Source of the DNA: Gemmatimonadota bacterium
GTDB taxonomy: Bacteria > Latescibacterota > UBA2968 > UBA8231
Length of the DNA stretch: 11,873 bases
Direction of reading: 5' to 3'
Assembly (NCBI GenBank): GCA_038128265.1
Contig: JAYPJE010000095.1
Span: 1 to 11,873, forward strand
Shown: one piece after another, positions 1 through 11,873 of the stretch
How the letters are laid out: each line of letters starts with the position of its first letter
Position numbering within the stretch: the first letter of the stretch is position 1
Program-made: the position numbers and the translations under genes
The notes under the pieces: model-generated
What the model saw: the letters and a program-made list of their open reading frames with translations, nothing else
Told to the model about the DNA's origin: nothing
The model's database searches: none

Positions 1-126
1 TGGCAGGCCATCGCTTCCTATATGGAATGGCTCGGCCCCATGCGGCTCATCGATGTCGAACTCGTGCAGCTGCAGATTGTGGCCAAGTTCCGCGGCGAAG
101 CAATCAGCGACGAAGAATTCTGCTAG
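1..126 (+). CDS. 3' end of a gene (5'-truncated by the window edge) ending in a FliG C-terminal-like domain; paralog of 139-930
   Basis: Not in the ORF track. Frame 1 translates to WQAIASYMEWLGPMRLIDVELVQLQIVAKFRGEAISDEEFC* (TAG 124-126). This matches the FliG C-terminal pattern MExLGPVRLxDVExxQxxIV and aligns without gaps to the end of the next ORF. Confidence 0.8.
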   Translation, partial: WQAIASYMEWLGPMRLIDVELVQLQIVAKFRGEAISDEEFC

Positions 127-138
127 GGAGGGTGTGAT

Positions 139-930
139 ATGACCACGTCACGGGAATTGCCCGATCGCCCTAGCCTAGAAAATTTGAGAAAGCAGGCCAA
201 GGCGCTGCACCGACAGATCACGGCCGGCGATGATGAGGCCGTCGCTCGGGCACGGCAGCACCTGCCGCGCCTGGGCCGCATCGACGCGGCGGATGTAGCC
301 CGAGCGGGCGTAACGCTGCAAGAGGTCCAGCACATTATTGCCGTCGAATACGGCTATGGCAAGTGGCAGGACCTGCTGGCCAGCCTAGACGGACAGCGTC
401 CCAAGAATTGGCCGCGCGCGATTCCCATCCGGCCGGGCTTGCCCAACTTGGAGCGCGAAGCGGCTATGTTGCACCGCGCTGCTCAGGAGGGACGATCTTG
501 GTGTGCCCTGCGCTTCAGAAAAAGCGTCGCCCGCTTGGCCGATGTGCCCGACGATGAAATCGGCCGCGCTGGCGTAACCTTAGACGAGGCGAGGCTAGTC
601 ATCGCCACCGATTACGGCTACGCGAGTTGGACCGATTTGGATGCAGAGGTAGGTCAACTGCGTCCCGTGCACGCCTTCGAGAGCTTGGCCGACCTAGAGG
701 ACGACGAGATCCGCGAGATCATCGTTCGCGTGGGACGCGATCGCCTCGCCATCGCTTTCAAGTCGGTGAGCGACCACTTCAAGAATCGCTTCTCAACCAA
801 TATGACCGCTGCAGAGTGGCGGGCTCTGGTAGAGGCTACCGAAGCGCTCGGTCCCATGCCGCAGACCGCAGTAGAGGCGGTGCAGTTGGAGATCCTGCGC
901 AAGTTCCGCAGCGACGACCCGCTGGTGTGA
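139..930 (+). CDS. Hypothetical protein, 263 aa: two tandem N-terminal helical repeats (LPxRPxLxxL...AxxYGYxxWxDL) fused to a FliG C-terminal-like domain
   Basis: GGAGG RBS at 127-131 and ATG at 139. Residues 7-80 and 95-168 are repeats. Residues ~180-257 (FESLADLEDDEIREIIVRVGRDRLAIAFK...FSTNMT...LGPM...VEAVQLEIL) follow the FliG_C pattern FEDLxxLDDxxIxxxLRxVxxxxLAxALK...NMS...LGPV...VExAQxxI. It lacks the FliG N and middle domains, so it is not called fliG. Confidence 0.8.
   Translation: MTTSRELPDRPSLENLRKQAKALHRQITAGDDEAVARARQHLPRLGRIDAADVARAGVTLQEVQHIIAVEYGYGKWQDLLASLDGQRPKNWPRAIPIRPGLPNLEREAAMLHRAAQEGRSWCALRFRKSVARLADVPDDEIGRAGVTLDEARLVIATDYGYASWTDLDAEVGQLRPVHAFESLADLEDDEIREIIVRVGRDRLAIAFKSVSDHFKNRFSTNMTAAEWRALVEATEALGPMPQTAVEAVQLEILRKFRSDDPLV
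157..642 (+). repeat. Intragenic tandem domain duplication (copies ~157-378 and ~421-642; period 264 nt / 88 aa)
   Basis: Gap-free manual alignment gives about 30 identical residues in ~74, including LHR, RL, RAGVTLxE, IA and YGYxxWxDL. Confidence 0.9.
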
Positions 931-1351: not shown

Positions 1352-2404
1352 ATGCCCGTCACATATCGCGTTGGATTGGTCGGCTGTGGGCGCATGGGCG
1401 CCACTATTGACGACGAAGTAAAGGACCGCCCTAACTCCCATATTTTCCTGCCCTACTCGCATGCGGCAGCCATCGTCGCCAGCGAGCGCACCGAGCTTGT
1501 AGCCGTATGCGACCCCGTTCCCGAAAAGGCCGAGACCATTCGCCAGCGCTACGGTGCGCAGAAGGCCTATTCGGATCACGAGGCGATGATCGACGCCGAA
1601 AATCTCGACATAGTCGCCGTTGCTACGCGGCCCGGTCCGCATGCGGCCATTGTATGCTATGCAGCAGAGAAGGGCGTTCGGGGCATCTACTGCGAAAAGC
1701 CGCTGTGCAATGCCGTGAGCGAAATGGATGCGATGCGCGCCGCTTGCAGCAAGGCCGGCGTAAAGTTTAACTACGGCACGCAGCGCCGCTATATGCCGGT
1801 TTATTCGCGCGTGCGCGAAATGGTGGCCGAAGGAGCGATTGGCGACGTGCAGGCTATCGTTGCCCACTGTGGCGCCAGTGCGGCGCAGTGGGGTCTGACC
1901 CACGCTGCCGATATGGTGCTGTTCCTAGCCGGCGATGGCGAGATCGAATCGGTGCAGGGGGCGCTGGTTGACGCGGAGGGCGATTGGCAAGGCGATGTGC
2001 TGAAAAAAGACGCGGCCATTAGCAGCGCCTACGTGCGCTTTAAAAACGGTATACACGCCTATCTCACTGCTTCGGGCGGGTGGGAGTTTGAGGTCAGCGG
2101 CAGCAAGGGCAAGCTGCGCACGCTGAGCAACAGCCTCGACTATCAGCTGCGTCAGATCGATGAACACGGAGAGCTCAAAGAGGTGGAAGTCGCGCCGGTC
2201 GAAATCGGCAGCGGCACGCAGCGCGGCATCGAAGATTTGGCGCGCGCGCTGGACGATGACGGCGATACGATGGGCAATTTAGAGCTGGCCTGCCGCAGTC
2301 AAGAAATGATCTTTGCCGTGGCCGAGTCGCATCGCCTGGGCGGTGCGCGCGTGCCGCTGCCCTTGGCCAATCGCCAATTGGCCATTGCGCCGGACCATTA
2401 TTGA
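1352..2404 (+). CDS. Gfo/Idh/MocA family NAD(P)-dependent oxidoreductase
   Basis: N-terminal Rossmann motif RVGLVGCGRMG, LVAVCD, LDIVAVATRPGPH and the family motif IYCEKP. The start is moved to ATG 1352, which follows AGGAG, from the track's GTG at 1325. Confidence 0.92.
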   Translation: MPVTYRVGLVGCGRMGATIDDEVKDRPNSHIFLPYSHAAAIVASERTELVAVCDPVPEKAETIRQRYGAQKAYSDHEAMIDAENLDIVAVATRPGPHAAIVCYAAEKGVRGIYCEKPLCNAVSEMDAMRAACSKAGVKFNYGTQRRYMPVYSRVREMVAEGAIGDVQAIVAHCGASAAQWGLTHAADMVLFLAGDGEIESVQGALVDAEGDWQGDVLKKDAAISSAYVRFKNGIHAYLTASGGWEFEVSGSKGKLRTLSNSLDYQLRQIDEHGELKEVEVAPVEIGSGTQRGIEDLARALDDDGDTMGNLELACRSQEMIFAVAESHRLGGARVPLPLANRQLAIAPDHY

Positions 2405-2416
2405 AATGGGACTGCT

Positions 2417-2848
2417 CTGAAAATTTCCATCGTCACGTTTCAGAAGAACAGAAACGCAGACGTCGAAGCGGCCGAGGGCGAGTACGTCAAACGGCTGTCT
2501 CGCCACGCCGACGTGGAGCTCTGTCCAATTAAGAACTGGAAGGACGACGACGGACTGCCGGCGCGCTTTCTCAAGGCCGGTCGCATCGTCGGGCTCTTTG
2601 TCGAGGGGCGCTCGTATTCTTCGGAAGGATTGGCCGATCAGCTACAGCAGTGGATGAACGGCGGCGTGTCCCATATCGTGCTGGTAATCGGTGCAGCCGA
2701 GGGCATGCCCAGTGGCGTGGTAGGGCAGATCGGCGAAAAGTGGTCGCTGTCGAAGCTGACGTTTTCGCACCAGCTTATACGCCTGCTGCTACTGGAAGCG
2801 CTCTATCGCTCGTTCGATATATTGCACGGCGGTCGCTACCATAAATGA
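2417..2848 (+). CDS. rlmH: 23S rRNA (pseudouridine-1915-N3)-methyltransferase RlmH (SPOUT family); probable non-canonical CTG start
   Basis: C-terminal motifs IGAAEG, WSLSKLTFSHQLIRLLLLEALYRSFDILHGGRYHK. The frame stays open upstream of the track start (2513) as LKISIVTFQK...EYVKRLSRH, matching the RlmH N-terminus MKIxIxxVGK...EYxKRL. The start position is inferred. Confidence 0.9.
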   Translation: MKISIVTFQKNRNADVEAAEGEYVKRLSRHADVELCPIKNWKDDDGLPARFLKAGRIVGLFVEGRSYSSEGLADQLQQWMNGGVSHIVLVIGAAEGMPSGVVGQIGEKWSLSKLTFSHQLIRLLLLEALYRSFDILHGGRYHK

Positions 2849-2850
2849 GC

Positions 2851-3993
2851 TTAGAAATAGCTCATCAATTTGTCCCATAGATCCATGCGGCCGACGCTCT
2901 TCTCGGCGACGATGGGCATCTCGACCAGCAGGCTATCGCCGAGCGAGATCGTTAGGCGACCGAGTGCATCCCCTTCTTCTACGGGAGCGGGTAGCTGTGC
3001 GGGCAGCTCGAGCTGGCGCTGCAGCGCGCGCTCCTGATCGGGGCTCAAGATGGCGGTGGCGACTTCGGGCACGAGCGCGCGCACGTGCGGCTCAAGACCC
3101 CAGTCGAGCGCAACGCTACCCATCACTTCGCCTGCGTCGGCAAGGGGCACGCGCGAAAACGTATCGAAGCCCCAGTCTATCAGGCGCCGCGTCTCGCGGT
3201 CGCGCAGCCGTTCGGAGCGCGCGCCAAGCACGACGGAGACCAGGCGCATATCCCGGCGCATGGCCGTGGCGACCAGGCAGGATCCAGCGCGCTGTGTATA
3301 GCCGGTTTTGAGGCCGTCTAGCCCTTCAAATTTGCCGAGCAGTTTGTTGGTTGTATAGAGCATAAATTTGCCATCGCGAAACGGCTTATAGCGAATAGAC
3401 GACCACTGCAAAACCTGCGGATAGCGCAGCAGGGCGCGCGCAATCTGCGCTAGATCGTGGGCGGTAGTTAGGTTGCGGTTGTCCATCGGCGTGTCGTCTA
3501 GGCCGTGTACGTTGACGCAGCGCGTGTTGCGCAGCCCGAGCTGCTGGGCTTGGGCGTTCATCATGTCGATGTAGCTCGCGACGGAGCCGCCGATATGCTC
3601 TGCAACGGCGACGCAGGCGTCGTTGGCGGAGGGAATGACGATCGCCTCCATCAGCTCTTCGAGGGGAAATACCTCGCCCTGTGCCAAGAATACCTGAGAG
3701 CCGCCGATGCGCGAAGCACGCGCCGATACGCGCACCGAGTCGCTCAGCGAGAATTGGCCGCTTTCCACCTGCTGCATCGCGACTAACTCGAGCAGCAGTT
3801 TTTGCGTGCTGGCCGGTGAGCGCTGTTCGTGGGCGTTGTGCGAAAAGAGGACGGTGCCCGTTTCGGCTTCTACGAGAATGGCTGCGGCATAGGGTGGATT
3901 TTTACCCGGGTCGAATTCGATCGCGTGGGCAGCCACGGCAAATAAATAGGCAAAGAGAAGCCCTCCTGCATGGAATGCGCTGTGCATAGGCAT
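2851..3993 (-). CDS. D-alanyl-D-alanine carboxypeptidase (peptidase S11, PBP5/DacA-DacF-like)
   Basis: Catalytic motifs SxxK (PASTQK), SxN (SANDA) and KTG (GLKTGYT), plus NVHGL. It has an N-terminal hydrophobic signal peptide (…LLFAYLFAVAAHA), a PBP5 C-terminal-like region (LPAPVEEGDALG) and an amphipathic tail (LWDKLMSYF). The start could be 3993 or 3987. Confidence 0.93.
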   Translation of the reverse strand: MPMHSAFHAGGLLFAYLFAVAAHAIEFDPGKNPPYAAAILVEAETGTVLFSHNAHEQRSPASTQKLLLELVAMQQVESGQFSLSDSVRVSARASRIGGSQVFLAQGEVFPLEELMEAIVIPSANDACVAVAEHIGGSVASYIDMMNAQAQQLGLRNTRCVNVHGLDDTPMDNRNLTTAHDLAQIARALLRYPQVLQWSSIRYKPFRDGKFMLYTTNKLLGKFEGLDGLKTGYTQRAGSCLVATAMRRDMRLVSVVLGARSERLRDRETRRLIDWGFDTFSRVPLADAGEVMGSVALDWGLEPHVRALVPEVATAILSPDQERALQRQLELPAQLPAPVEEGDALGRLTISLGDSLLVEMPIVAEKSVGRMDLWDKLMSYF

Positions 3994-4047
3994 GGCGTTG
4001 GCCTGTAGAAAATTCGATGTATGCGGGGAGCTGGGGGTGAGCGATAG

Positions 4048-4075
4048 AAACTACGGCTTATGGATTTTTGGTCAA
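4048..4075 (-). promoter_or_regulatory. Possible sigma70-like promoter for the carboxypeptidase gene
   Basis: Minus strand: TTGACC (4075-4070), 16-nt spacer, TAGTTT (4053-4048), in the divergent gap. Confidence 0.35.
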
Positions 4076-4112
4076 CTAGTGTGGCCGCGATGCGCTGCAT
4101 AAGGGAGACGAT

Positions 4113-5597
4113 ATGAAGAGGGTGCTGATTGCTGGTTTGGTGCACGAAACGCATACGTTCCTCGCCGAGCATACGGAACTGGCGCGCTTTGAAGAGATGG
4201 TATGGCGCTGCGGACAGCCGATGCTAGACTATTGCCGCGGCGACCTGTCGCCCATGGGCGGAGCGCTCGAGGTAGCCGATGCCTTGGGATGGCAGCTCTA
4301 CCCTTCGCGATACGGGGCTGCCATGCCCTCGGGAACGGTCGAAGACGAAGTGCTGCGCGTGTGGTGGAGCGAAGTCGAGCGCGATTTGGATGCGGCCCTG
4401 CAGAATGGACTGGACGGCGTGTTGCTCATCTTGCACGGGGCCATGGTCTGCGCGTCGTTTGCCGATGCCGAGGGCGAGGTGCTGCGGCGCGTGCGCGCCA
4501 AAGTTGGTCCGCATATACCAATTGCCGCCGATCTCGATCTGCACGCCAATTTCAGCCCTGAGATGGCAGAGTACGGCACCCTCTTTACCGGATATCGGGA
4601 GAATCCACACACGGATGCGCGCCAGGCCGGCGTGCGCGCTGCAGAGCTGCTCCATCGCACCATGCAGTCGGGCGAGCGGCCGCGCGTGGTTTGTGTCAAA
4701 CCCGGTGCCCTGTATGCGCCGGTGGGTACGGGCACGGCCAACGAGCCCATGCGCAGCTTTCAGGCAGCGGCTCGCGCCCTCGAAGCACACTATCCGGAAC
4801 TGTTGGAGGTGTGCGTGCTGCCGGGCTTTGCCTACGCTGATATCCCCTGTGCCGGTTTTGCGCTAGTGGCCACGACTACCGGCGATGCGGTCAAGGCACA
4901 GAACCTACTGGCGCCGCTCGCTGAGGAAGTGCTGGCCCGCGTAGAGCAGGGCAATCCACTCGACCCGCCGGTCGATGAGGCGCTGCCCAACGCGCTGCGC
5001 CACAAAGCGGGGCCCATTGGCCTGATCGAACCATCGGACAATATTGGCGGGGGCACGCCGGGCGATGGCACGGGTATCCTGCAGGCCCTGCTGCGCTACG
5101 AAGTGGACAATGCCGCTGTGGTGATAAACGATTCGCAGGCCGTGCGCGCCTGTCACAGCGCCAGCGTTGGCGATCGTCTGCACTTGCCTGTCGGCGGCAA
5201 GGTCGACCGCCTGCACGGACCGACGCTCGATTTGGATCTGCAGATCGAAAATTTAACCGATGGAAAGTTCGACTTAGAGAATCCCCATTCGCATCTAGCC
5301 TCGCTCGTCGGGCGCCACGTCGATATGGGGCTGTGCGCTGTGGTGCGCCACCGCGGTGTGCGAATATTGCTAACGACGCTCAAGACGCCGCCGATGGATT
5401 TGGGACAGCTGCGCTCGCAGGGCATTGTGCCCGAACAGCTCTACGTGGTCGGGATCAAGGCAGCGGTTTCGCACAAGGCGGCCTACGACCCCATTCTAAA
5501 GGCCAGCTTTTACGTCGATACGCCGGGATTGGGGTCGAGCGATCTGAGGCGTTTTGCCTTTCGCCACGTGCCGCGCCCTATTGCGCCGCTGGACTAA
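4113..5597 (+). CDS. MlrC-family (peptidase M81) metallohydrolase
   Basis: Family motifs HETHTF, LHGAM, DAEG, DLDLHAN, YRENPHTD and SDNIGGGTPGD. Length of 494 aa is typical. RBS AGGGAG lies upstream. Confidence 0.9.
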   Translation: MKRVLIAGLVHETHTFLAEHTELARFEEMVWRCGQPMLDYCRGDLSPMGGALEVADALGWQLYPSRYGAAMPSGTVEDEVLRVWWSEVERDLDAALQNGLDGVLLILHGAMVCASFADAEGEVLRRVRAKVGPHIPIAADLDLHANFSPEMAEYGTLFTGYRENPHTDARQAGVRAAELLHRTMQSGERPRVVCVKPGALYAPVGTGTANEPMRSFQAAARALEAHYPELLEVCVLPGFAYADIPCAGFALVATTTGDAVKAQNLLAPLAEEVLARVEQGNPLDPPVDEALPNALRHKAGPIGLIEPSDNIGGGTPGDGTGILQALLRYEVDNAAVVINDSQAVRACHSASVGDRLHLPVGGKVDRLHGPTLDLDLQIENLTDGKFDLENPHSHLASLVGRHVDMGLCAVVRHRGVRILLTTLKTPPMDLGQLRSQGIVPEQLYVVGIKAAVSHKAAYDPILKASFYVDTPGLGSSDLRRFAFRHVPRPIAPLD

Positions 5598-5604
5598 AGT
5601 CGGC

Positions 5605-5634
5605 TTGACCGGCGGCGACGTATCCGCTTAGCTT
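5605..5634 (+). promoter_or_regulatory. Possible sigma70-like promoter for the dioxygenase gene
   Basis: TTGACC (5605-5610), 18-nt spacer, TAGCTT (5629-5634). RBS AGAGGAG at 5651-5657. Confidence 0.4.
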
Positions 5635-5663
5635 TTGTACTCTATCAGACAGAGGAGAAGGCG

Positions 5664-6644
5664 ATGAGCGTTGTGGACATACCGCAGTTGACCTATGGGG
5701 GCAACGCGCTCGATATGGAGCAGGTCGGTCTGCTGCGTCGGTCAGATGATGCGCTGCACGATCGCGATGAATTGCATCGGCGCATGCGCGAAGACGGCTA
5801 TCTGTTTCTGCCGGGTTTGCTCGACCGCAATCAGGTGATTGAGGCGCGCCGCGAACTGTGCGATCGGCTCTTCAAGGCGGGCATGTTGGACTATGCGCGC
5901 CCGGCTATGGAGTGCGTTGCCGCACCGCAGGCGCAGATAGACGCGGCCGCTACCGGGCCCTTTATGCCGCAGCTAGCGCGCGACAATGCGCCGCTAGCAA
6001 AGGTGATCTACGATGGGGCGATGATGCAGTTTTATGAGTTCTTTCTCGACGGTCCGGTGCGCCACTTTGACTACACGTGGTTTCGCGCCAAACAGCCGGG
6101 CACCCACACGGCGACGACGCCGCACTACGACTTCGTCTATATGGGACGCGGTACGCCGGACCTCTATACGGCGTGGACCCCGTTCAGCGACGTGCCCTTT
6201 GCTATGGGCGGTCTTATGATGCTGGAAAAATCGCACGAGCACGAGGAGTTGGTGCAGGGCTACGGGCAGACGGACGTCGATCTATACTGCGAAAACGAGG
6301 GCGATGCCGGCGAAGTCGTCGCTGCCGCGCAGGCGGCCGGTCGCGAATTGACCGGCGAGGAGCGGCAGCAGATTCGCTGGAATTCGACCGGTGCCTACTC
6401 GTCGGATGCTGTTGCTACGCGCCAGCAGTGGGGCGGCCGCTGGCTGTTGGAGGAATATCAGATGGGCGACGTGCTCGTATTTTGCATGCACATCATGCAC
6501 GCTAGCTCGGACAACCAGACGGAGTATATTCGCCTGTCGTCAGACTCGCGTTATCAGCTGGCTAATGAGCCAGCTGACGATCGCTGGATCGGCGACGACC
6601 CACCGGCCCATGGCATTCGCGCCAAGCGCGGCATGGTCTGCTAA
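5664..6644 (+). CDS. Phytanoyl-CoA dioxygenase (PhyH) family Fe(II)/2-oxoglutarate-dependent dioxygenase
   Basis: EDGYLFLPGLL N-terminal motif, HxD (PHYD), TAWTPF...GGL..LEKSH, GDVLVF...MHAS (distal His) and RLSSDSRY (2-oxoglutarate-binding Arg). Confidence 0.92.
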   Translation: MSVVDIPQLTYGGNALDMEQVGLLRRSDDALHDRDELHRRMREDGYLFLPGLLDRNQVIEARRELCDRLFKAGMLDYARPAMECVAAPQAQIDAAATGPFMPQLARDNAPLAKVIYDGAMMQFYEFFLDGPVRHFDYTWFRAKQPGTHTATTPHYDFVYMGRGTPDLYTAWTPFSDVPFAMGGLMMLEKSHEHEELVQGYGQTDVDLYCENEGDAGEVVAAAQAAGRELTGEERQQIRWNSTGAYSSDAVATRQQWGGRWLLEEYQMGDVLVFCMHIMHASSDNQTEYIRLSSDSRYQLANEPADDRWIGDDPPAHGIRAKRGMVC

Positions 6645-6670
6645 ACGCGCCAGATATATATTGGATGTGG

Positions 6671-6707
6671 AGCGGTTCGGGTGCGCTATGCCCGGACCGC
6701 TTTTTTT
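6671..6707 (+). terminator. Rho-independent terminator after the dioxygenase gene
   Basis: GCGGTTCGGGT pairs with GCCCGGACCGC (two G-U pairs) and is followed by T7 (6701-6707). It lies between convergent genes. Confidence 0.88.
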
Positions 6708-6713
6708 ATGCCG

Positions 6714-7304
6714 CTAGTTGACCGACGGGTCGACGGGTAATTCGGCCATTGCGCGGTACTTGCCGCCGAGCGAATAGAGCACGTCGCGCCACATTGACTC
6801 CGTGCTGGATGAGAGCACGAGGCCAACGTCGCCGGGCGCTAGAATCCAGGCACCCGTTGCAATTTCTCGTTCTAGCTGGCCCTGCTCCCAGCCGGCGTAT
6901 CCTAAATAGAAGCGCAGCAGCGGATCTTCGGCAGCAACTACTTCGGGTTCGGCTCGCACGGCATCGAGATCGCCGCCCCAGTGCAGGTCTTCAATAACCG
7001 GATTGCCGTTAGCAATGATATGACTGAGGCGGTGTAAGTAAAACAGGTAGCTGCGGTCGACGGGCCCACCCTCAAAGAATAGGTGGCTAACGCCGGTGTC
7101 GGTCTGCGCGCTTTCGGCAAAGCGCAGTAGCTCATCGCTCGACTCGATCTGCACCTGTTCGCCCATGGGGCGGTTGAGAACGAGGCCCATGCTGCCGTCG
7201 TCTGCGCTGTGGTGGATAATGAGTATGACCGAGCGCGCAAAATAGTCTTCTTGCAGCTCTTGGCTGGCTGCCAGTATAGTGCCTTTTTGCAGGGGAGCCG
7301 GCAT
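6714..7304 (-). CDS. yqgE: YqgE/AlgH family protein (UPF0301, DUF179)
   Basis: Motifs FARSVILI.HH...GSMGLVLNRP, GGPV, RFYLGYAGWEQGQLEREI..GAW, and C-terminal DPSVN. Confidence 0.93.
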   Translation of the reverse strand: MPAPLQKGTILAASQELQEDYFARSVILIIHHSADDGSMGLVLNRPMGEQVQIESSDELLRFAESAQTDTGVSHLFFEGGPVDRSYLFYLHRLSHIIANGNPVIEDLHWGGDLDAVRAEPEVVAAEDPLLRFYLGYAGWEQGQLEREIATGAWILAPGDVGLVLSSSTESMWRDVLYSLGGKYRAMAELPVDPSVN

Positions 7305-7403
7305 AATAACCCTTGAAAAGATGCGAAAAGCGCGCGCCCGATTTGGCCGTATTCGGGATGCGATCTACTATGAATGTGCTGCCAATCGGCGCGGCGTCAA
7401 CTG

Positions 7404-8561
7404 TCAGTAGAGGAGATAGCGTTCGCGCACGGCAGCAAAGGCGTCGAGGTCGCTTTGCCACGCGGCCAGCAGCTGCTCGAGGTCGCATCCGTCATCAATG
7501 GCACGGCGGATGTCGTCGCCGCCGGCCAGGCGGTCGAAGTTGTGAATGCCGCCGGAAGGAATGCGCCAGGAAAAATCGTCTGCGCACTGGGCGCGCAGTT
7601 CTATAAGCGCAGCAAACCCGGTGCGTATGGGGTCAAACGAGGTTCGCTCTACCACGTGCAGCTGCACGCCTTGGCACACGTGGCCAGCGTGCTTGCTAGC
7701 GCTGGGCTGGAAGTAAACGGGGCGAAAGCGCGCACCTGGTAACGGCATCTCGTTGAGCGCAGCGGCGAGGCGATGACCGTCGACAAAGGGTGCGCCAAAT
7801 TGCTCAAAGGGCCTCGTCGTACCGCGTCCTTCTGAGATGTTTGTTCCCTCAAAGAAACAGGTGCCTGGATAGGCTATGGCCGTGTCAAGCGTCGGCATAT
7901 TGGGCGATGGTGGCACCCAGGGCAAGTCGAGTTCGTCCCAGTACTGGGCGCGCTGCCAGTGTTCTAACTCGACGATATGCAGGTCGACACCGATGGAAAA
8001 TTCTTCGTTGAAAAGCCGGGCGAGTTCGCCGATGGTCAACCCATAGCGAATGGGAATGGGGTAGCGCCCGACAAAAGAAGCAAAGGACGGATCGAGCACA
8101 TTGCCCGCACAGGTCAACCCACCGATGGGGTTGGGGCGGTCGAGCACGGCAAAGGGGACACCGTGCTGAGCGCAGGCCTCCATACTCATGCTCATCGTAT
8201 ACAAGTAGGTGTAAAAACGCACGCCGACGTCCTGAATGTCGAAGAGCATCAGATCAATGCCCTCGAGCATCTCGGCGCTGGGCTGGCGCGTCTCGCCGTA
8301 CAGGCTATGGGCTGCTACGCCGGTCTGCGGATCGCGGAACGTGCCGACTTTTTCGCCGTCTTGGGCCGCACCGCGAATGCCGTGTTCCGGGCCAAATAGG
8401 GCGACTAGCGTGCAGCGCGCGTCGGCGTGCAGGCGGTCGGCCGTGGCGACCAGTCGGGCATCGACGCCGGAGTGGTTGGTTATCAGCCCAACGCGACGAT
8501 GGGCAATTAAATCGACGGCGTCGTCGAGTAGGCGTTGGCAGCCGAGGCGCACGGCGTTCAT
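7404..8561 (-). CDS. namZ: DUF1343 family exo-beta-N-acetylmuramidase NamZ-like protein
   Basis: Motifs RVGLITNHSG, LFGPEHGIRG, SLYG, FDIQDVGVRFYTY, VLDRPNP, GLTIGELA, WVPPSPNMPT, EGTNISEGRGTTRPFE, and C-terminal RERYLLY. Confidence 0.93.
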   Translation of the reverse strand: MNAVRLGCQRLLDDAVDLIAHRRVGLITNHSGVDARLVATADRLHADARCTLVALFGPEHGIRGAAQDGEKVGTFRDPQTGVAAHSLYGETRQPSAEMLEGIDLMLFDIQDVGVRFYTYLYTMSMSMEACAQHGVPFAVLDRPNPIGGLTCAGNVLDPSFASFVGRYPIPIRYGLTIGELARLFNEEFSIGVDLHIVELEHWQRAQYWDELDLPWVPPSPNMPTLDTAIAYPGTCFFEGTNISEGRGTTRPFEQFGAPFVDGHRLAAALNEMPLPGARFRPVYFQPSASKHAGHVCQGVQLHVVERTSFDPIRTGFAALIELRAQCADDFSWRIPSGGIHNFDRLAGGDDIRRAIDDGCDLEQLLAAWQSDLDAFAAVRERYLLY

Positions 8562-9523
8562 GGGCGACCTTCCGATGGAGAGGATTCGACGCGGCGCACG
8601 ATAAAGGCGATGCCGCCGAATAGACTAGCGAGAATACCGGCTAGGTAGCCCAGCAGCGACATAGCGGTAGATACCTCGGGGGCAAAGCCGAGTCCACCGA
8701 AGAGACCTACCAGCGTGTTTTCTCGCACGCCGAGTCCGCCAATCGAAATGGGCAATGAGGCAATAACGGCCGCAATGGGTTGGAAGGACATAAAGTAGAG
8801 CAGGCCAGGGAACATGCCGATGGCTAAGCCGGCTGACCAGTAGACTAGGATCCGGCAAAACTGCACGCCGAGCGAAATGCCCCAAACGCCGGCTAGGAGT
8901 GGGACACGGTCGCGGTAGACGACGACGCTGCGTCGCAGTTTGCTCACTAAACCGGCGATAGCGCCTGGCAAAAAGCGCGTGAGAATGCGCTCGATCAGCG
9001 AGCCGATGCGCCGACTCAGGCCCATGGCCAGCACGACGACTAGGCCGAGCCATACGGGGATTAATACAGAGACGAGCAGGCTGCTTTTGCTCGCCGTAGC
9101 GGCGATAAAGGGATAGGCCGCCAGCGCCAGACAGCAGGTGGAAAAGAGGCCGATCAGGCGATCCATCATAGTGGCCGCTACGCCACCGCTGCTCTCACCG
9201 GTCAGGCGGCGTATGTCGTAGATGCGCATGGCGTCGCCGCCGATATTGCCCAGCAAGACGTTGTTAAAAAAGACGCCTACAAAGTAGAATAGCAGGGCTT
9301 GTGCAAAGCGTATGGGCAGGTTTTGCGCGCGCAGCAGCAGGTACCACTGAACGGATCCCAGCGTATTGCTCAAGAGAAAAAAGAATACGGCTAGGGCGAA
9401 AAAACTCGGTGAAAGCTGAGCGAAGACAGTGCCCAATTCGCGCCAGTCCATGCCCGAGGCCAGGTAGGCGATGAGGCCTATACTGACGACGAGTTTGGCG
9501 ATTACGTTGAAGGCGCGCTTCAC
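8558..9523 (-). CDS. Lysylphosphatidylglycerol synthase TM-domain / flippase-like membrane protein (UPF0104, YbhN-like)
   Basis: Multiple hydrophobic segments with motifs W..LL, FFNNVLLGNIGGDAMR, DRLIG and LPISIGGLGVRE. The GTG start overlaps the upstream TGA (GTGA, 9523-9520). Confidence 0.88.
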   Translation of the reverse strand: MKRAFNVIAKLVVSIGLIAYLASGMDWRELGTVFAQLSPSFFALAVFFFLLSNTLGSVQWYLLLRAQNLPIRFAQALLFYFVGVFFNNVLLGNIGGDAMRIYDIRRLTGESSGGVAATMMDRLIGLFSTCCLALAAYPFIAATASKSSLLVSVLIPVWLGLVVVLAMGLSRRIGSLIERILTRFLPGAIAGLVSKLRRSVVVYRDRVPLLAGVWGISLGVQFCRILVYWSAGLAIGMFPGLLYFMSFQPIAAVIASLPISIGGLGVRENTLVGLFGGLGFAPEVSTAMSLLGYLAGILASLFGGIAFIVRRVESSPSEGRP

Positions 9524-10554
9524 GGAGCGTCCTCCTCGTCTACTAGGTCGGCCGCGCGCCGCACGCCGCGCGCGTGGTACTGATAGAGCAGGCTGCCGGA
9601 ATACATGCCGTCGCGCGCGGCGGTTTGGCGCAGGCGCTGGCTGTGGCGGCGGCGGCGAAGAATATTGAGGGGGTGGCTAACGCACCAGAGCAGGGCGACC
9701 AGCGGCGCCGGCGCACTGCTCCAGCGTCGCTGTGTTAGGTAGCCGATACTGGCTAGTAGCTCGAGCGGCAGGCGCAGCGCCAGCAGCCACAGCAGGCGAA
9801 AGAGCGGTTGGTTTTTACAGTGCATAACCAGGTTGTTGCGATGGTTTAAATAGGTCTTGCGAAAAGAGGCTGGCGGCAGCGAGAAGCCCGAGTGGTGGTA
9901 GACTACGGACCGGGGCACGGCCCAGATGCGATACCCGGCCAGCTGCAGGCGCCAGCACAGGTCGATTTCTTCAAAGTGCATAAAGAAGTCTAGGTCGAGA
10001 AAATCCAGCGCGCGCGCCGCATCGACGCGCAGGAAGAGCGCTGAGCCGCACGCCCAGAACAGCGGAACTTCCCGATCGTACTGCCCGCAGTCTAGCTCTC
10101 GCTGGTCGAAGAGGCGTCCGCGGCAAAACGTGTAGCCCAGCGCGTCGATATAGCCGCCGGCTCCGCCGCCGTAGTCGAAATATTGGTCGTCGGTAGCCGA
10201 GAGCAGCTTGGGTTGGCAGGCGGCGATTTGCGGATTGCTATCGGCTCGCTCAACGAGCGGCCGCAGCCAGCCGGGTGCGACGCGGGTGTCGTCGTTTAAC
10301 AGCACCGCGTAGCGACTCCGCGCTGCTTTCAATCCGCGGTTGCACGAACCGGTGAATCCCATATTGCGCTCATTGCGCAGGATTTCGATTTGTGGGAAGC
10401 GCGCTGCTGCCTGCTGCATGCTGGGTGCGTTGCCACCGTCGTCTATGACTAACACGCGAATCGGCCAGTCGCTGTGTTCATAGAGCGACTGCAGGCAGTC
10501 GAGTAGAACCGCGGCGCGATAGTGCGGTATGACAATGGTTACGGGCTCGCTCAC
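9520..10554 (-). CDS. Glycosyltransferase family 2 (GT2) protein
   Basis: Motifs VTIVIPHY, VLVIDDG, RNMGFTGSCNRG, LLNDD, WACGSALF and FFMHFEEIDLCWR. The start is reassigned to GTG 10554 (GTGA overlap with the upstream stop); the track's extension to 10734 lies inside the upstream gene. Confidence 0.92.
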   Translation of the reverse strand: MSEPVTIVIPHYRAAVLLDCLQSLYEHSDWPIRVLVIDDGGNAPSMQQAAARFPQIEILRNERNMGFTGSCNRGLKAARSRYAVLLNDDTRVAPGWLRPLVERADSNPQIAACQPKLLSATDDQYFDYGGGAGGYIDALGYTFCRGRLFDQRELDCGQYDREVPLFWACGSALFLRVDAARALDFLDLDFFMHFEEIDLCWRLQLAGYRIWAVPRSVVYHHSGFSLPPASFRKTYLNHRNNLVMHCKNQPLFRLLWLLALRLPLELLASIGYLTQRRWSSAPAPLVALLWCVSHPLNILRRRRHSQRLRQTAARDGMYSGSLLYQYHARGVRRAADLVDEEDAP

Positions 10555-11873
10555 GGCAGGGCGCTGCTGTCGCCTCCCTCTCCTTGTTGCAGGGCGTTTT
10601 GCAGAATGCGCTCGGCGTCGACCAGGCGCTGTTCCTCGCCGTATTCGGCCCGGTAGTTTTGCAACAGAGTCAGGGCAGCCTCGGCGTCGCCCTTGGCCTG
10701 CAGCGCCGCGGCCAGTTCGTAATAGGCATTCCAACGGGCCGGTTCTATGGCGATGATGCGCTCATAGAGGGGGATGGCGCGCTCAAACTGCGAGTAGGGT
10801 TCGTTGAGCAAGACGCCGGCTAGTGCGAGTATATTATCATAAGTTGCCAGGGCACTTTCGCCATACTGATCAATCAGTATGTTGGCGGCGTTGCCCACAT
10901 AGGAGCCAGCTACATCTTTCTGGCCAATTTTCAGCAGAAAATCAGCGGCCGTATAATAGCCCTCCCAGCTCATATAAATCGTTTCCTCGGCCCAGCGCAT
11001 AAGGCGCCGCAGGTCGTCGTCGCGCCCTTCCTCATTGTAGCGTTCGGCCAGATGCAACACGCAGGCGCGGTAGTTGCCCAGCAGGCGCCGGCTGTTCTCG
11101 TCCTTGTAAACGTGCGGATCGGTCAAGCCACGGAATTGATATACCTCAAACAGGTGGCGTTCCAGCGTTTCGATATCCGAGATGGGATTGCGCTGCGGCG
11201 TGACTTTCATCGTCATACCGGTCATCTCCATATAGGGCAGGAGGCCGGTGTAATTGTTGCTGGGAATAGTAATGGCAAAATGAAGCGGTCGTTTCCACTG
11301 GTTCCAGTATACGATGCCGATGACCATGATATCCTGCACGCGCAGCAAGTCGTGTCCGGGCTGCGCGTCGACTTCGACGTCGAGGCCGAGCTTTTTGTAT
11401 TCGGGCGGCGTTTTGGGCTGCTGCCACAGGCGCTTGTAAAGGTCGACCAGCTGCGTGTCAGTTAACACCGAGTCGATGTATTCGTCGGAGAGCTTGATAT
11501 CGACTTTGGGTTCGCGGTCGCGCAACTGCTTGATGTACCAGTTGGTGTTGAGCAGACTCAGATTGACCACGCGCACGTCGCGACGCAGTCCCTCCACTTC
11601 CTGTAGATACCACAGCGGAAACGTATCGTTATCGCCGTTGGTGAAGAGGATGCTGTTGGGTTCACACGTCTGCAGGATATTGTAGGCATAGTCATAGGCG
11701 ATGTAGTCGCCGGTGCGATCTTGTTCGTGGTAGAGCTTGTAGATCGTACCAATGGGCAGTGTCAAACCCACGACCGCGACGGCTGTCGTTATGGCCGTAG
11801 ACGAACGCGCTCGAACCCACTCGACGATGGCGACCCAGCCCAGGCCAATCCACAGCGCGTAGGCCAGATACAT
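10551..11873 (-). CDS. DUF2723 / TMEM260-like membrane protein, C-terminal part with TPR-like helices (5'-truncated by the window edge)
   Basis: The last TM helices are followed by the characteristic segment AYDYAYNIL...ILFTNGDNDTFPLWYLQEVEGLRRDVRVVNLSLLNTNWY. The C-terminus has TPR-like helices (AIPLYERIIAIEPARWNAYYELAAALQAKGDAEAAL). The ATG at 11873 is probably an internal Met. Confidence 0.82.
   Translation of the reverse strand: MYLAYALWIGLGWVAIVEWVRARSSTAITTAVAVVGLTLPIGTIYKLYHEQDRTGDYIAYDYAYNILQTCEPNSILFTNGDNDTFPLWYLQEVEGLRRDVRVVNLSLLNTNWYIKQLRDREPKVDIKLSDEYIDSVLTDTQLVDLYKRLWQQPKTPPEYKKLGLDVEVDAQPGHDLLRVQDIMVIGIVYWNQWKRPLHFAITIPSNNYTGLLPYMEMTGMTMKVTPQRNPISDIETLERHLFEVYQFRGLTDPHVYKDENSRRLLGNYRACVLHLAERYNEEGRDDDLRRLMRWAEETIYMSWEGYYTAADFLLKIGQKDVAGSYVGNAANILIDQYGESALATYDNILALAGVLLNEPYSQFERAIPLYERIIAIEPARWNAYYELAAALQAKGDAEAALTLLQNYRAEYGEEQRLVDAERILQNALQQGEGGDSSALP

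Follow-up and report, generated by a model that had tools for sequence, protein, structure and literature searches.

The gene at positions 139-930 (+) of the window, which is the whole 11,873-nt stretch of DNA analysed here, encodes a 263-aa protein that is not a FliG but belongs to an RNA-domain module, so far uncatalogued, whose partner here derives from the motor. The protein carries two copies of an N-terminal domain (ND) followed by the FliG_CC subdomain. ND copy 1 (154-390, +; residues 6-84) is canonical, with a basic KQAK helix, Q64, and W76, and ND copy 2 (421-654, +; residues 95-172) is diverged, having retained the core with variable KQAK lysines. The FliG_CC subdomain (670-912, +; residues 178-258) begins at the MFXF hinge and contains neither ARM-C nor the last helix of FliG. 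No membrane anchor was found in the protein. We propose that the ND pair, a likely binder of a structured leader RNA, and the FliG tip, a likely binder of a motor partner, may make the operon a self-limiting device that modulates or senses the flagellar motor, a reading that we consider quite plausible without calling it probable. No description of the ND-ND-FliG_CC architecture, of ND, or of the leader was found in the literature (post-2010 RNA-motif catalogues were covered via Rfam 15), in agreement with the sequence-only reading, which knew of no characterised protein built in this way.

The same reading had assigned the last ~80 aa to FliG_C, and profile and structural searches agree on this. 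Pfam FliG_C (PF01706) matched residues 179-257 with an E value of 5.7e-13 (49.5 bits, versus a cut-off of 23.3), and only positions 20-98 of the 108 in the model were covered. The fliG equivalog model TIGR00207 gave the protein 33.4 bits, versus a cut-off of 226.7. An AlphaFold model built from 36 homologues (pLDDT 82.5) matched T. maritima FliG (1lkv) with a Z score of 13.3 and an rmsd of 2.4 Å over 84 residues; solved FliG structures scored Z 12.4-13.3, compared with 6.0 for the best MgtE row and 5.0 at most for unrelated folds. In Foldseek, the FliG chain of 8ucs was superposed on the model with an rmsd of 1.3 Å over 75 columns, and no row reached an E value of 0.001. No match to FliG_N, FliG_M, or MgtE_N was listed for the protein in Pfam at E values up to 0.1. 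The FliG N-terminal and middle domains are replaced by two helical repeats, as had been proposed; these N-terminal units of ~80 aa are 40% identical to each other (E 2.6e-14). Among the Pfam matches of the window there were no flagellar genes, which also confirms the earlier reading.

The two repeats are copies of a widespread N-terminal domain. At its N-terminus the fusion protein has both the KQAK helix and the core motif G-x-x-x-W; residues K18, A20, K21, G72, and W76 of copy 1 are found in 36/36 rows of the family, and conservation at these positions extends over 140 ND sequences (K18 in 84%, K21 in 87%). A broad ND model, which includes both copies, scored them at 102 and 81 bits, and the second copy is without the conserved KQAK lysines. 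The single-sequence model of ND had a pLDDT of 54 with a best fold match of Z 5.3, and the ND rows in the full fusion model (pLDDT 82.5) reached Z 4.0 at most. No usable fold match came from the PDB, from viral structures, or from the ESM Atlas, whose entries near ND were all unnamed clusters, and this decides for neither a new nor a known fold. The N-terminal region of PF20066 (Glyoxalase_8) is weakly similar to ND, with E values of 0.013 for the present protein and 4.6e-4 for a related FliM fusion; the scores of 15.9 and 20.7 bits are below the curated cut-off of 23.7.

ND is closely coupled to a structured leader RNA. When metagenomes were scanned for the RNA first (there were at least 120 matches, of which 80 were retrieved, ten of them with too little downstream DNA), ND was found within 70 codons behind 57/58 structured leaders, compared with 0/12 unstructured ones. 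The ND HMM behind this count was partly built from those loci; a model from the family of the window alone gave more than 15 bits at 47/59 leader matches. Across 33 sources the leader stood only before ND genes or genes for a stand-alone mini-FliG_CC protein (the mini gene), and it was found neither before ND-less FliG fusions nor before the three fliG genes of the source genome. The partners fused to ND include ankyrin, glyoxalase, AHSA1, bifunctional nuclease with ClpN, LON-N, and sigma-54 ATPase domains. The covariance model of the leader matched 17/41 genomes with up to 11 matches per genome and a patchy distribution, and in 30 leader loci of the lineage that were read, the partners included ankyrin repeats, sigma-54 ATPase, ClpN, and motor pieces. 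In several relatives intact leaders stood before short or broken frames (L207, L210, L213, L214, L217, and L226), which suggests a fast turnover of ND genes.

The leader was recognised as ~130 non-coding bases upstream of the mini gene, conserved in the operons of 5/5 relatives. In the source genome, the leader of the 139-930 operon is itself cut off by the contig edge, and the same genome carries the element before an ND-ND-FliM gene on contig C93. A profile made from the five operon leaders also recognised the element close in front of the gene at most of 75 other loci, whose genes begin with ND, and leader-ND loci occur in Acidobacteriota, Actinomycetota, Chloroflexota, Armatimonadota, Planctomycetota, and Pseudomonadota. 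In an alignment of 49/80 loci, from which near-duplicates as well as variant and unanchored leaders were excluded, five helices had 88.7% of their cells paired, with two-sided changes in 17/27 pairs; 0/500 shuffles were as high, and slid controls were 31-49% paired. The pseudoknot helix is 99.7% paired, the anti-SD helix is 86.4% paired with two-sided changes in 5/7 pairs, and the first hairpin is only 62% paired. RNAalifold recovered no more than the pseudoknot helix and a single hairpin, and the other helices were defined by hand and then counted. Single-sequence folding of three leaders was unremarkable (z -0.6 to -1.8), and the evidence for the leader structure is the covariation. A TAnnnT hexamer of the -10 type, 34-46 nt before the pseudoknot, was present in 32/49 leaders, versus 3-5/47 in control windows, and points to a possible promoter of the sigma-70 type. 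In Actinobacteria, a leader variant before ND-glyoxalase genes (L029, L041, L043, L047-L049, and L067) has a conserved hairpin overlapping the apparent ORF start.

Leaders from 12 sources had no match in Rfam 15 at the gathering score, and nothing of note was found for two of them at E values up to 10. As far as their sequences are displayed in PMC2864571, Rhodopirellula-1, Solibacter-1, and Soil-1 look unlike the leader by eye. The leader could still be a riboswitch for a small signal, with ND as a receptor of the same signal and the fusions of motor fragments as brakes or decoys, which we regard as unlikely. Its invariant purine-rich core beside the pseudoknot, combined with a helix hiding the SD, would suit such an RNA, and so would the great diversity of ND partners, the leader before an ND-less gene in relative G012, and the c-di-GMP-I riboswitch under which one fliG copy of the source genome already stands. 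However, riboswitches usually control many unrelated gene types, and nearly all leaders of the metagenome scan directly precede ND. The downstream genes hint at no common metabolite, and the missing Rfam match speaks against a catalogued riboswitch class.

The preferred reading, that ND binds the leader and the FliG tip a motor partner, also draws on the organisation of the operon. At the contig edge, positions 1-126 (+) hold the 3' end of a stand-alone mini-FliG_CC gene of ~96 aa, which gives a weak FliG_C match and whose start and leader lie beyond the edge; one sequencing run was found that covers the operon genes in pieces, and it did not extend the contig past its edge. A Shine-Dalgarno-like GGAGG (127-131, +) directly follows the stop codon of this gene. 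The fragment is 78% identical to a complete 96-aa gene upstream of the ortholog in L005, and the mini-FliG_CC family comprises 69 related proteins. In five relatives, the 96-aa mini-FliG_CC gene is located directly upstream of the fusion gene, being stop-broken in one, with gaps of 10-79 nt in four relatives; the operon reads leader, mini-FliG_CC, ND-ND-FliG_CC. These relatives are MAGs labelled Latescibacterota, Gemmatimonadota, or unclassified; the genome searches recovered their five operons again, and each operon enters the counts a single time. The sequence-only reading had missed that the gene upstream is a second FliG_CC gene and that the repeats form a widespread domain tied to a leader RNA. 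No stator gene was seen by eye among the neighbouring ORFs of the five operons. Mini and fusion genes are adjacent in 5/6 relatives having the mini gene; in the sixth, G012, the leader is followed by the mini gene with no ND or fusion gene behind it. Downstream, a strong hairpin and then a terminator-like site (943-1005, +; z -3.57, with 0/200 shuffles as stable) likely mark the end of the operon, where one terminator-like site (978-995) was seen and 0.9 were expected by chance.

The remainder of the window is ordinary. A tRNA-Val(GAC) lies just downstream of the operon (1159-1235, -), and the genes at 1352-11873 encode a Gfo/Idh/MocA oxidoreductase, a SPOUT methyltransferase (its ORF at 2513-2848 covers only model positions 61-154), a D-Ala-D-Ala carboxypeptidase, MlrC, PhyH, AlgH, NamZ, a flippase-like protein, a glycosyltransferase, and a TPR protein.

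The alignment of the fusion protein to Salmonella FliG begins at residue 235. In a preprint (bioRxiv 10.1101/2024.04.30.591856), the MFXF hinge is placed at residues 233-236 between FliG_CN and FliG_CC, FliG_CN sits on the M domain of the neighbouring subunit, and FliG_CC bears the torque helix with R281, D288, and D289; MotA E98 and R90 are named as the partners of FliG R281 and D289 in another study (PMC7564593). Since the match starts at the hinge and ARM-C precedes it, the protein has FliG_CC only. The torque domain recognised by the sequence-only reading therefore stands with respect to the FliG_CC fold and not with respect to ARM-C, and the oligomerisation by ARM-C stacking that it considered loses its basis. 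The torque-helix equivalent (802-849, +, mapped to Salmonella FliG) has Ala, Glu, and Ala at the positions of R281, D288, and D289, so that the suggested torque coupling to a MotA-type motor is not borne out either. Based on the sequence, FliG_CC of the fusion would be able neither to polymerise via ARM-C nor to take torque by the known route.

These changes are general in the family. Among 35 family members (one truncated row of the 36 was excluded) and 20 full FliGs of the same lineage, the R281 position is basic in 11/35 versus 15/20, the D288 position is acidic in 29/35 versus 19/20, the D289 position is acidic in 0/35 versus 19/20, and the R297 position is basic in 2/35 versus 19/20. In 16 other FliG_C fusions, a mixed set including several ND-FliG_CC-MotA proteins, R281 was retained in 12 and D289 in 11. 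The Phe of the MFXF hinge and the K264 position are retained in the fusion, the K264 and R297 positions being ones that we take to be FliG sites with known roles. The last FliG helix is deleted according to the alignment, though the acidic-hydrophobic C-terminal tail behind it (913-927, +) is still like that of native FliG. A derived RxGRD motif (727-741, +; residues 197-201) was gained, which is found otherwise only in the mini protein (35/35 fusions, 58/59 full-length minis, 0/20 full FliGs, and 0/16 other FliG_C fusions). In a quick tree of 105 columns and 65 rows, with 15 and 14 sampled rows for mini and fusion, their FliG_CC sequences grouped into a single clade with a long stem (0.76) and an SH-aLRT support of 100. 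In short, the fusion shares with FliG_CC of known proteins (PF01706; Salmonella; T. maritima 1lkv and 1qc7; 8ucs) the fold, the sequence, the hinge Phe, the K264 position, and the C-terminal tail; unlike FliG, it is without FliG_N, FliG_M, ARM-C, the last helix, R281, and D289, has gained RxGRD, and is fused behind two ND copies.

The earlier suggestion of a non-flagellar system is contradicted by the genome itself. The source genome (84% complete) has nine flagellin-family matches, fliF, and eight MotA/ExbB-family matches; fliF, motA, and flhA are located in a flagellar cluster on contig C37, and three full fliG genes lie outside it (C32, C26, and C68; L001-L003). The usual place of fliG between fliF and fliH is empty (C37:15881-18277), the C68 copy is divergent, and a c-di-GMP-I riboswitch is located at L001:2587-2679 (-), upstream of the C32 copy. 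Intact fusion genes were found in 6/132 genomes of the class, in a search scoring at most 19 candidates per genome. All six carriers have flhA and belong to the 30/76 family genomes with this gene, and none of the 46 family genomes without flhA has an intact fusion; as only 6/30 flhA-positive genomes carry it, the fusion is accessory. Five relatives have 7-19 FliG_C matches each. In G123, fliG, fliF, and flagellin are broken, flhA has no match, and the fusion and mini genes are frameshifted, while 9/9 genes for translation-type GTPases are intact; this joint decay was seen in one genome, and related genomes are not independent.

Based on these data, it is rather improbable that the RxGRD form of FliG_CC has left the motor and now serves as a private mini-fusion module tuning ND, for which the flagellar link would be that of domain origin. 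Such a module would account for the single clade on its long stem, for the RxGRD motif, helix deletion, and D289 loss common to mini and fusion, and for their adjacency in nearly all relatives with a mini gene, but not for the absence of intact copies from family genomes without flhA, the joint decay with flagellar genes in G123, the mini gene alone in G012, or the retained K264 and FliG tail. The likely role of the fusion remains that of tying translation control to the flagellar motor and not that of driving a new one; the motor-modulator role among the suggestions of the sequence-only reading may hold.

Selection on the fusion gene was estimated against two relatives. The dN/dS values were 0.16 and 0.21 (0.17 and 0.35 for the FliG part), and the individual domains gave 0.14-0.17 against relative L005, indicating from sequence comparison that the gene is under purifying selection and bearing out the earlier claim that a FliG-derived module is reused in a new architecture. 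The fusion family spans most of the protein in 41 clusters of at least 47% identity among 48 matches. We therefore consider it quite improbable that leader and ND are a selfish or mobile expression cassette which captures host gene fragments, its fusions being mostly neutral. The multiple leaders per genome with their patchy distribution, the many leaders before broken frames in the lineage, and the FliG_C duplicated 7-19 times in five relatives would be expected of such a cassette; low dN/dS in each domain, an architecture constant over all 41 clusters with its new residues invariant, a MotA piece trimmed to a soluble form in several lineages, and 0 matches of the leader pattern in viral contigs would not. 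Finally, it is very improbable that FliG_CC is part of a non-flagellar system in which it is coupled to a motor of the MotA/ExbB/TolQ type, or that it forms oligomers via ARM stacking, since the intact fold, the retained K264, and the eight MotA/ExbB-family matches of the source genome are set against flagella in that genome and all intact carriers, the missing ARM-C, the family-wide changes at R281 and D289, the lack of a membrane anchor, and the absence, by eye, of stator genes beside the five operons.

Sister fusions connect ND with further pieces of the motor. At L085:243-1450 (C93:942-2152 in the source genome), the leader is followed by an ND-ND-FliM middle domain gene (FliM E 7.7e-14), and a similar ND-ND-FliM gene is present in G021 (L224). 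An ND-FliG_CC-MotA fusion was found in 12/76 family genomes at an E value of 1e-25 or better; in at least seven of these proteins MotA is matched at ~69-135 and then at ~212-242, the membrane hairpin between them being missing. As to the flagellar genes of the 12 genomes, flhA is present in 8/12, fliF in G005, and flagellins in G125 and G126; the completeness of G097 is 58%. Loci L010, L011, L012, L232, L225, L278, L280, L291, and L292 show ND, one or two FliG_CC, and one or two soluble MotA pieces; these genes are often in tandem, each with its own leader, and put the rotor and stator halves of the interface in one chain. Motor pieces were seen in 0/8 leader loci from five flhA-negative genomes (by eye; two were checked).

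Without ND or leader, FliG_C is also fused to whole MotA, nucleotide cyclase, FliM-FliN, and a FecR-like membrane protein. Whole MotA with a C-terminal FliG_CC is encoded at L275:881-2011 and L279:198-1313, a candidate self-locking stator as judged from its domains. Loci L266, L277, L267, L269-L271, L276, and L281 include FliM-FliN-FliG in one chain, nucleotide cyclase-FliG_C, and tandem FliG_C, as well as a mini gene of another type and FliG_C that is combined with a hydrophobic segment and has a FecR-like tail. Among 40 FliG_C loci selected for the length of their frames, no stand-alone FliG_C joined to a sigma factor was seen.

For the self-limiting modulator or sensor that we favour, the following mechanism is proposed. 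ND would bind the knotted leader of its own operon and set translation, probably by repressing it, and would act in trans as well as in cis. ND is the constant part: it accompanies the leader, carries conserved lysines, and exchanges its partners freely. It is the likely binder of the leader; against this, no usable match to a known RNA-binding fold was obtained for ND, and its second copy has lost the lysines. The leader in G012 precedes a mini gene without an ND gene, and control there needs either ND in trans or a small ligand. At the other end, the FliG_CC fold is kept, an invariant face has been gained, and the protein occurs only with flagella; its likely binding partner is the mini protein or a component of the motor. 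The RxGRD face would contact the mini protein or a component of the C-ring or stator and thereby alter the amount of ND free for RNA; the outcome would be a dose-limited modulator of the motor, or a sensor reporting motor assembly to translation. However, the contacts by which FliG is known to touch the motor have gone with R281, D289, ARM-C, and the last helix, and the partner may be a protein from outside the motor.

More generally, ND might be the RNA-binding output of a family of one-component regulators with a pseudoknotted operator and swapped inputs, in which the motor-part mimics of Latescibacterota report assembly or jam the motor, a view that is possible but on the doubtful side. The captured parts would be FliG_CC, the FliM middle domain, and FliG_CC with the soluble cytoplasmic domain of MotA, and these soluble mimics would either jam the motor at a self-limited dose or signal its assembly to translation. 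The flagellar brakes and clutches YcgR, MotI, and EpsE are soluble accessory factors presumed to work where FliG, FliM, and MotA meet, and they use PilZ or glycosyltransferase folds. The fusion resembles them as a soluble accessory protein in flagellated cells, its action on the motor being putative; unlike them, it has no PilZ or glycosyltransferase domain according to Pfam, and its putative effector derives from the motor itself. The operon also resembles autogenous operators such as the leaders of ribosomal-protein operons, in which a structured leader likewise hides the SD before an operon with a small basic candidate binder. It differs from these in that the candidate binder is encoded in the second gene as a mobile N-terminal domain with many partners, and in that its leader is without an Rfam match and present in several copies per genome.

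The fusions of ND to FliG_CC, to FliM, and to FliG_CC with soluble MotA are new, as is the leader before an ND-less gene. The latter separates two possibilities, i.e., that ND binds the RNA, also in trans, or that a small ligand binds it. The leader-ND pair spans many phyla, and this locus supplies it with concrete candidate partners, namely well-studied motor proteins with known surfaces. The natural fusions of FliG_CC with soluble MotA may serve as a ready-made model of the rotor-stator interface. If the motor fragments are indeed soluble sensors or brakes, they would represent a regulation of the flagellar motor for which no description was found in the literature.
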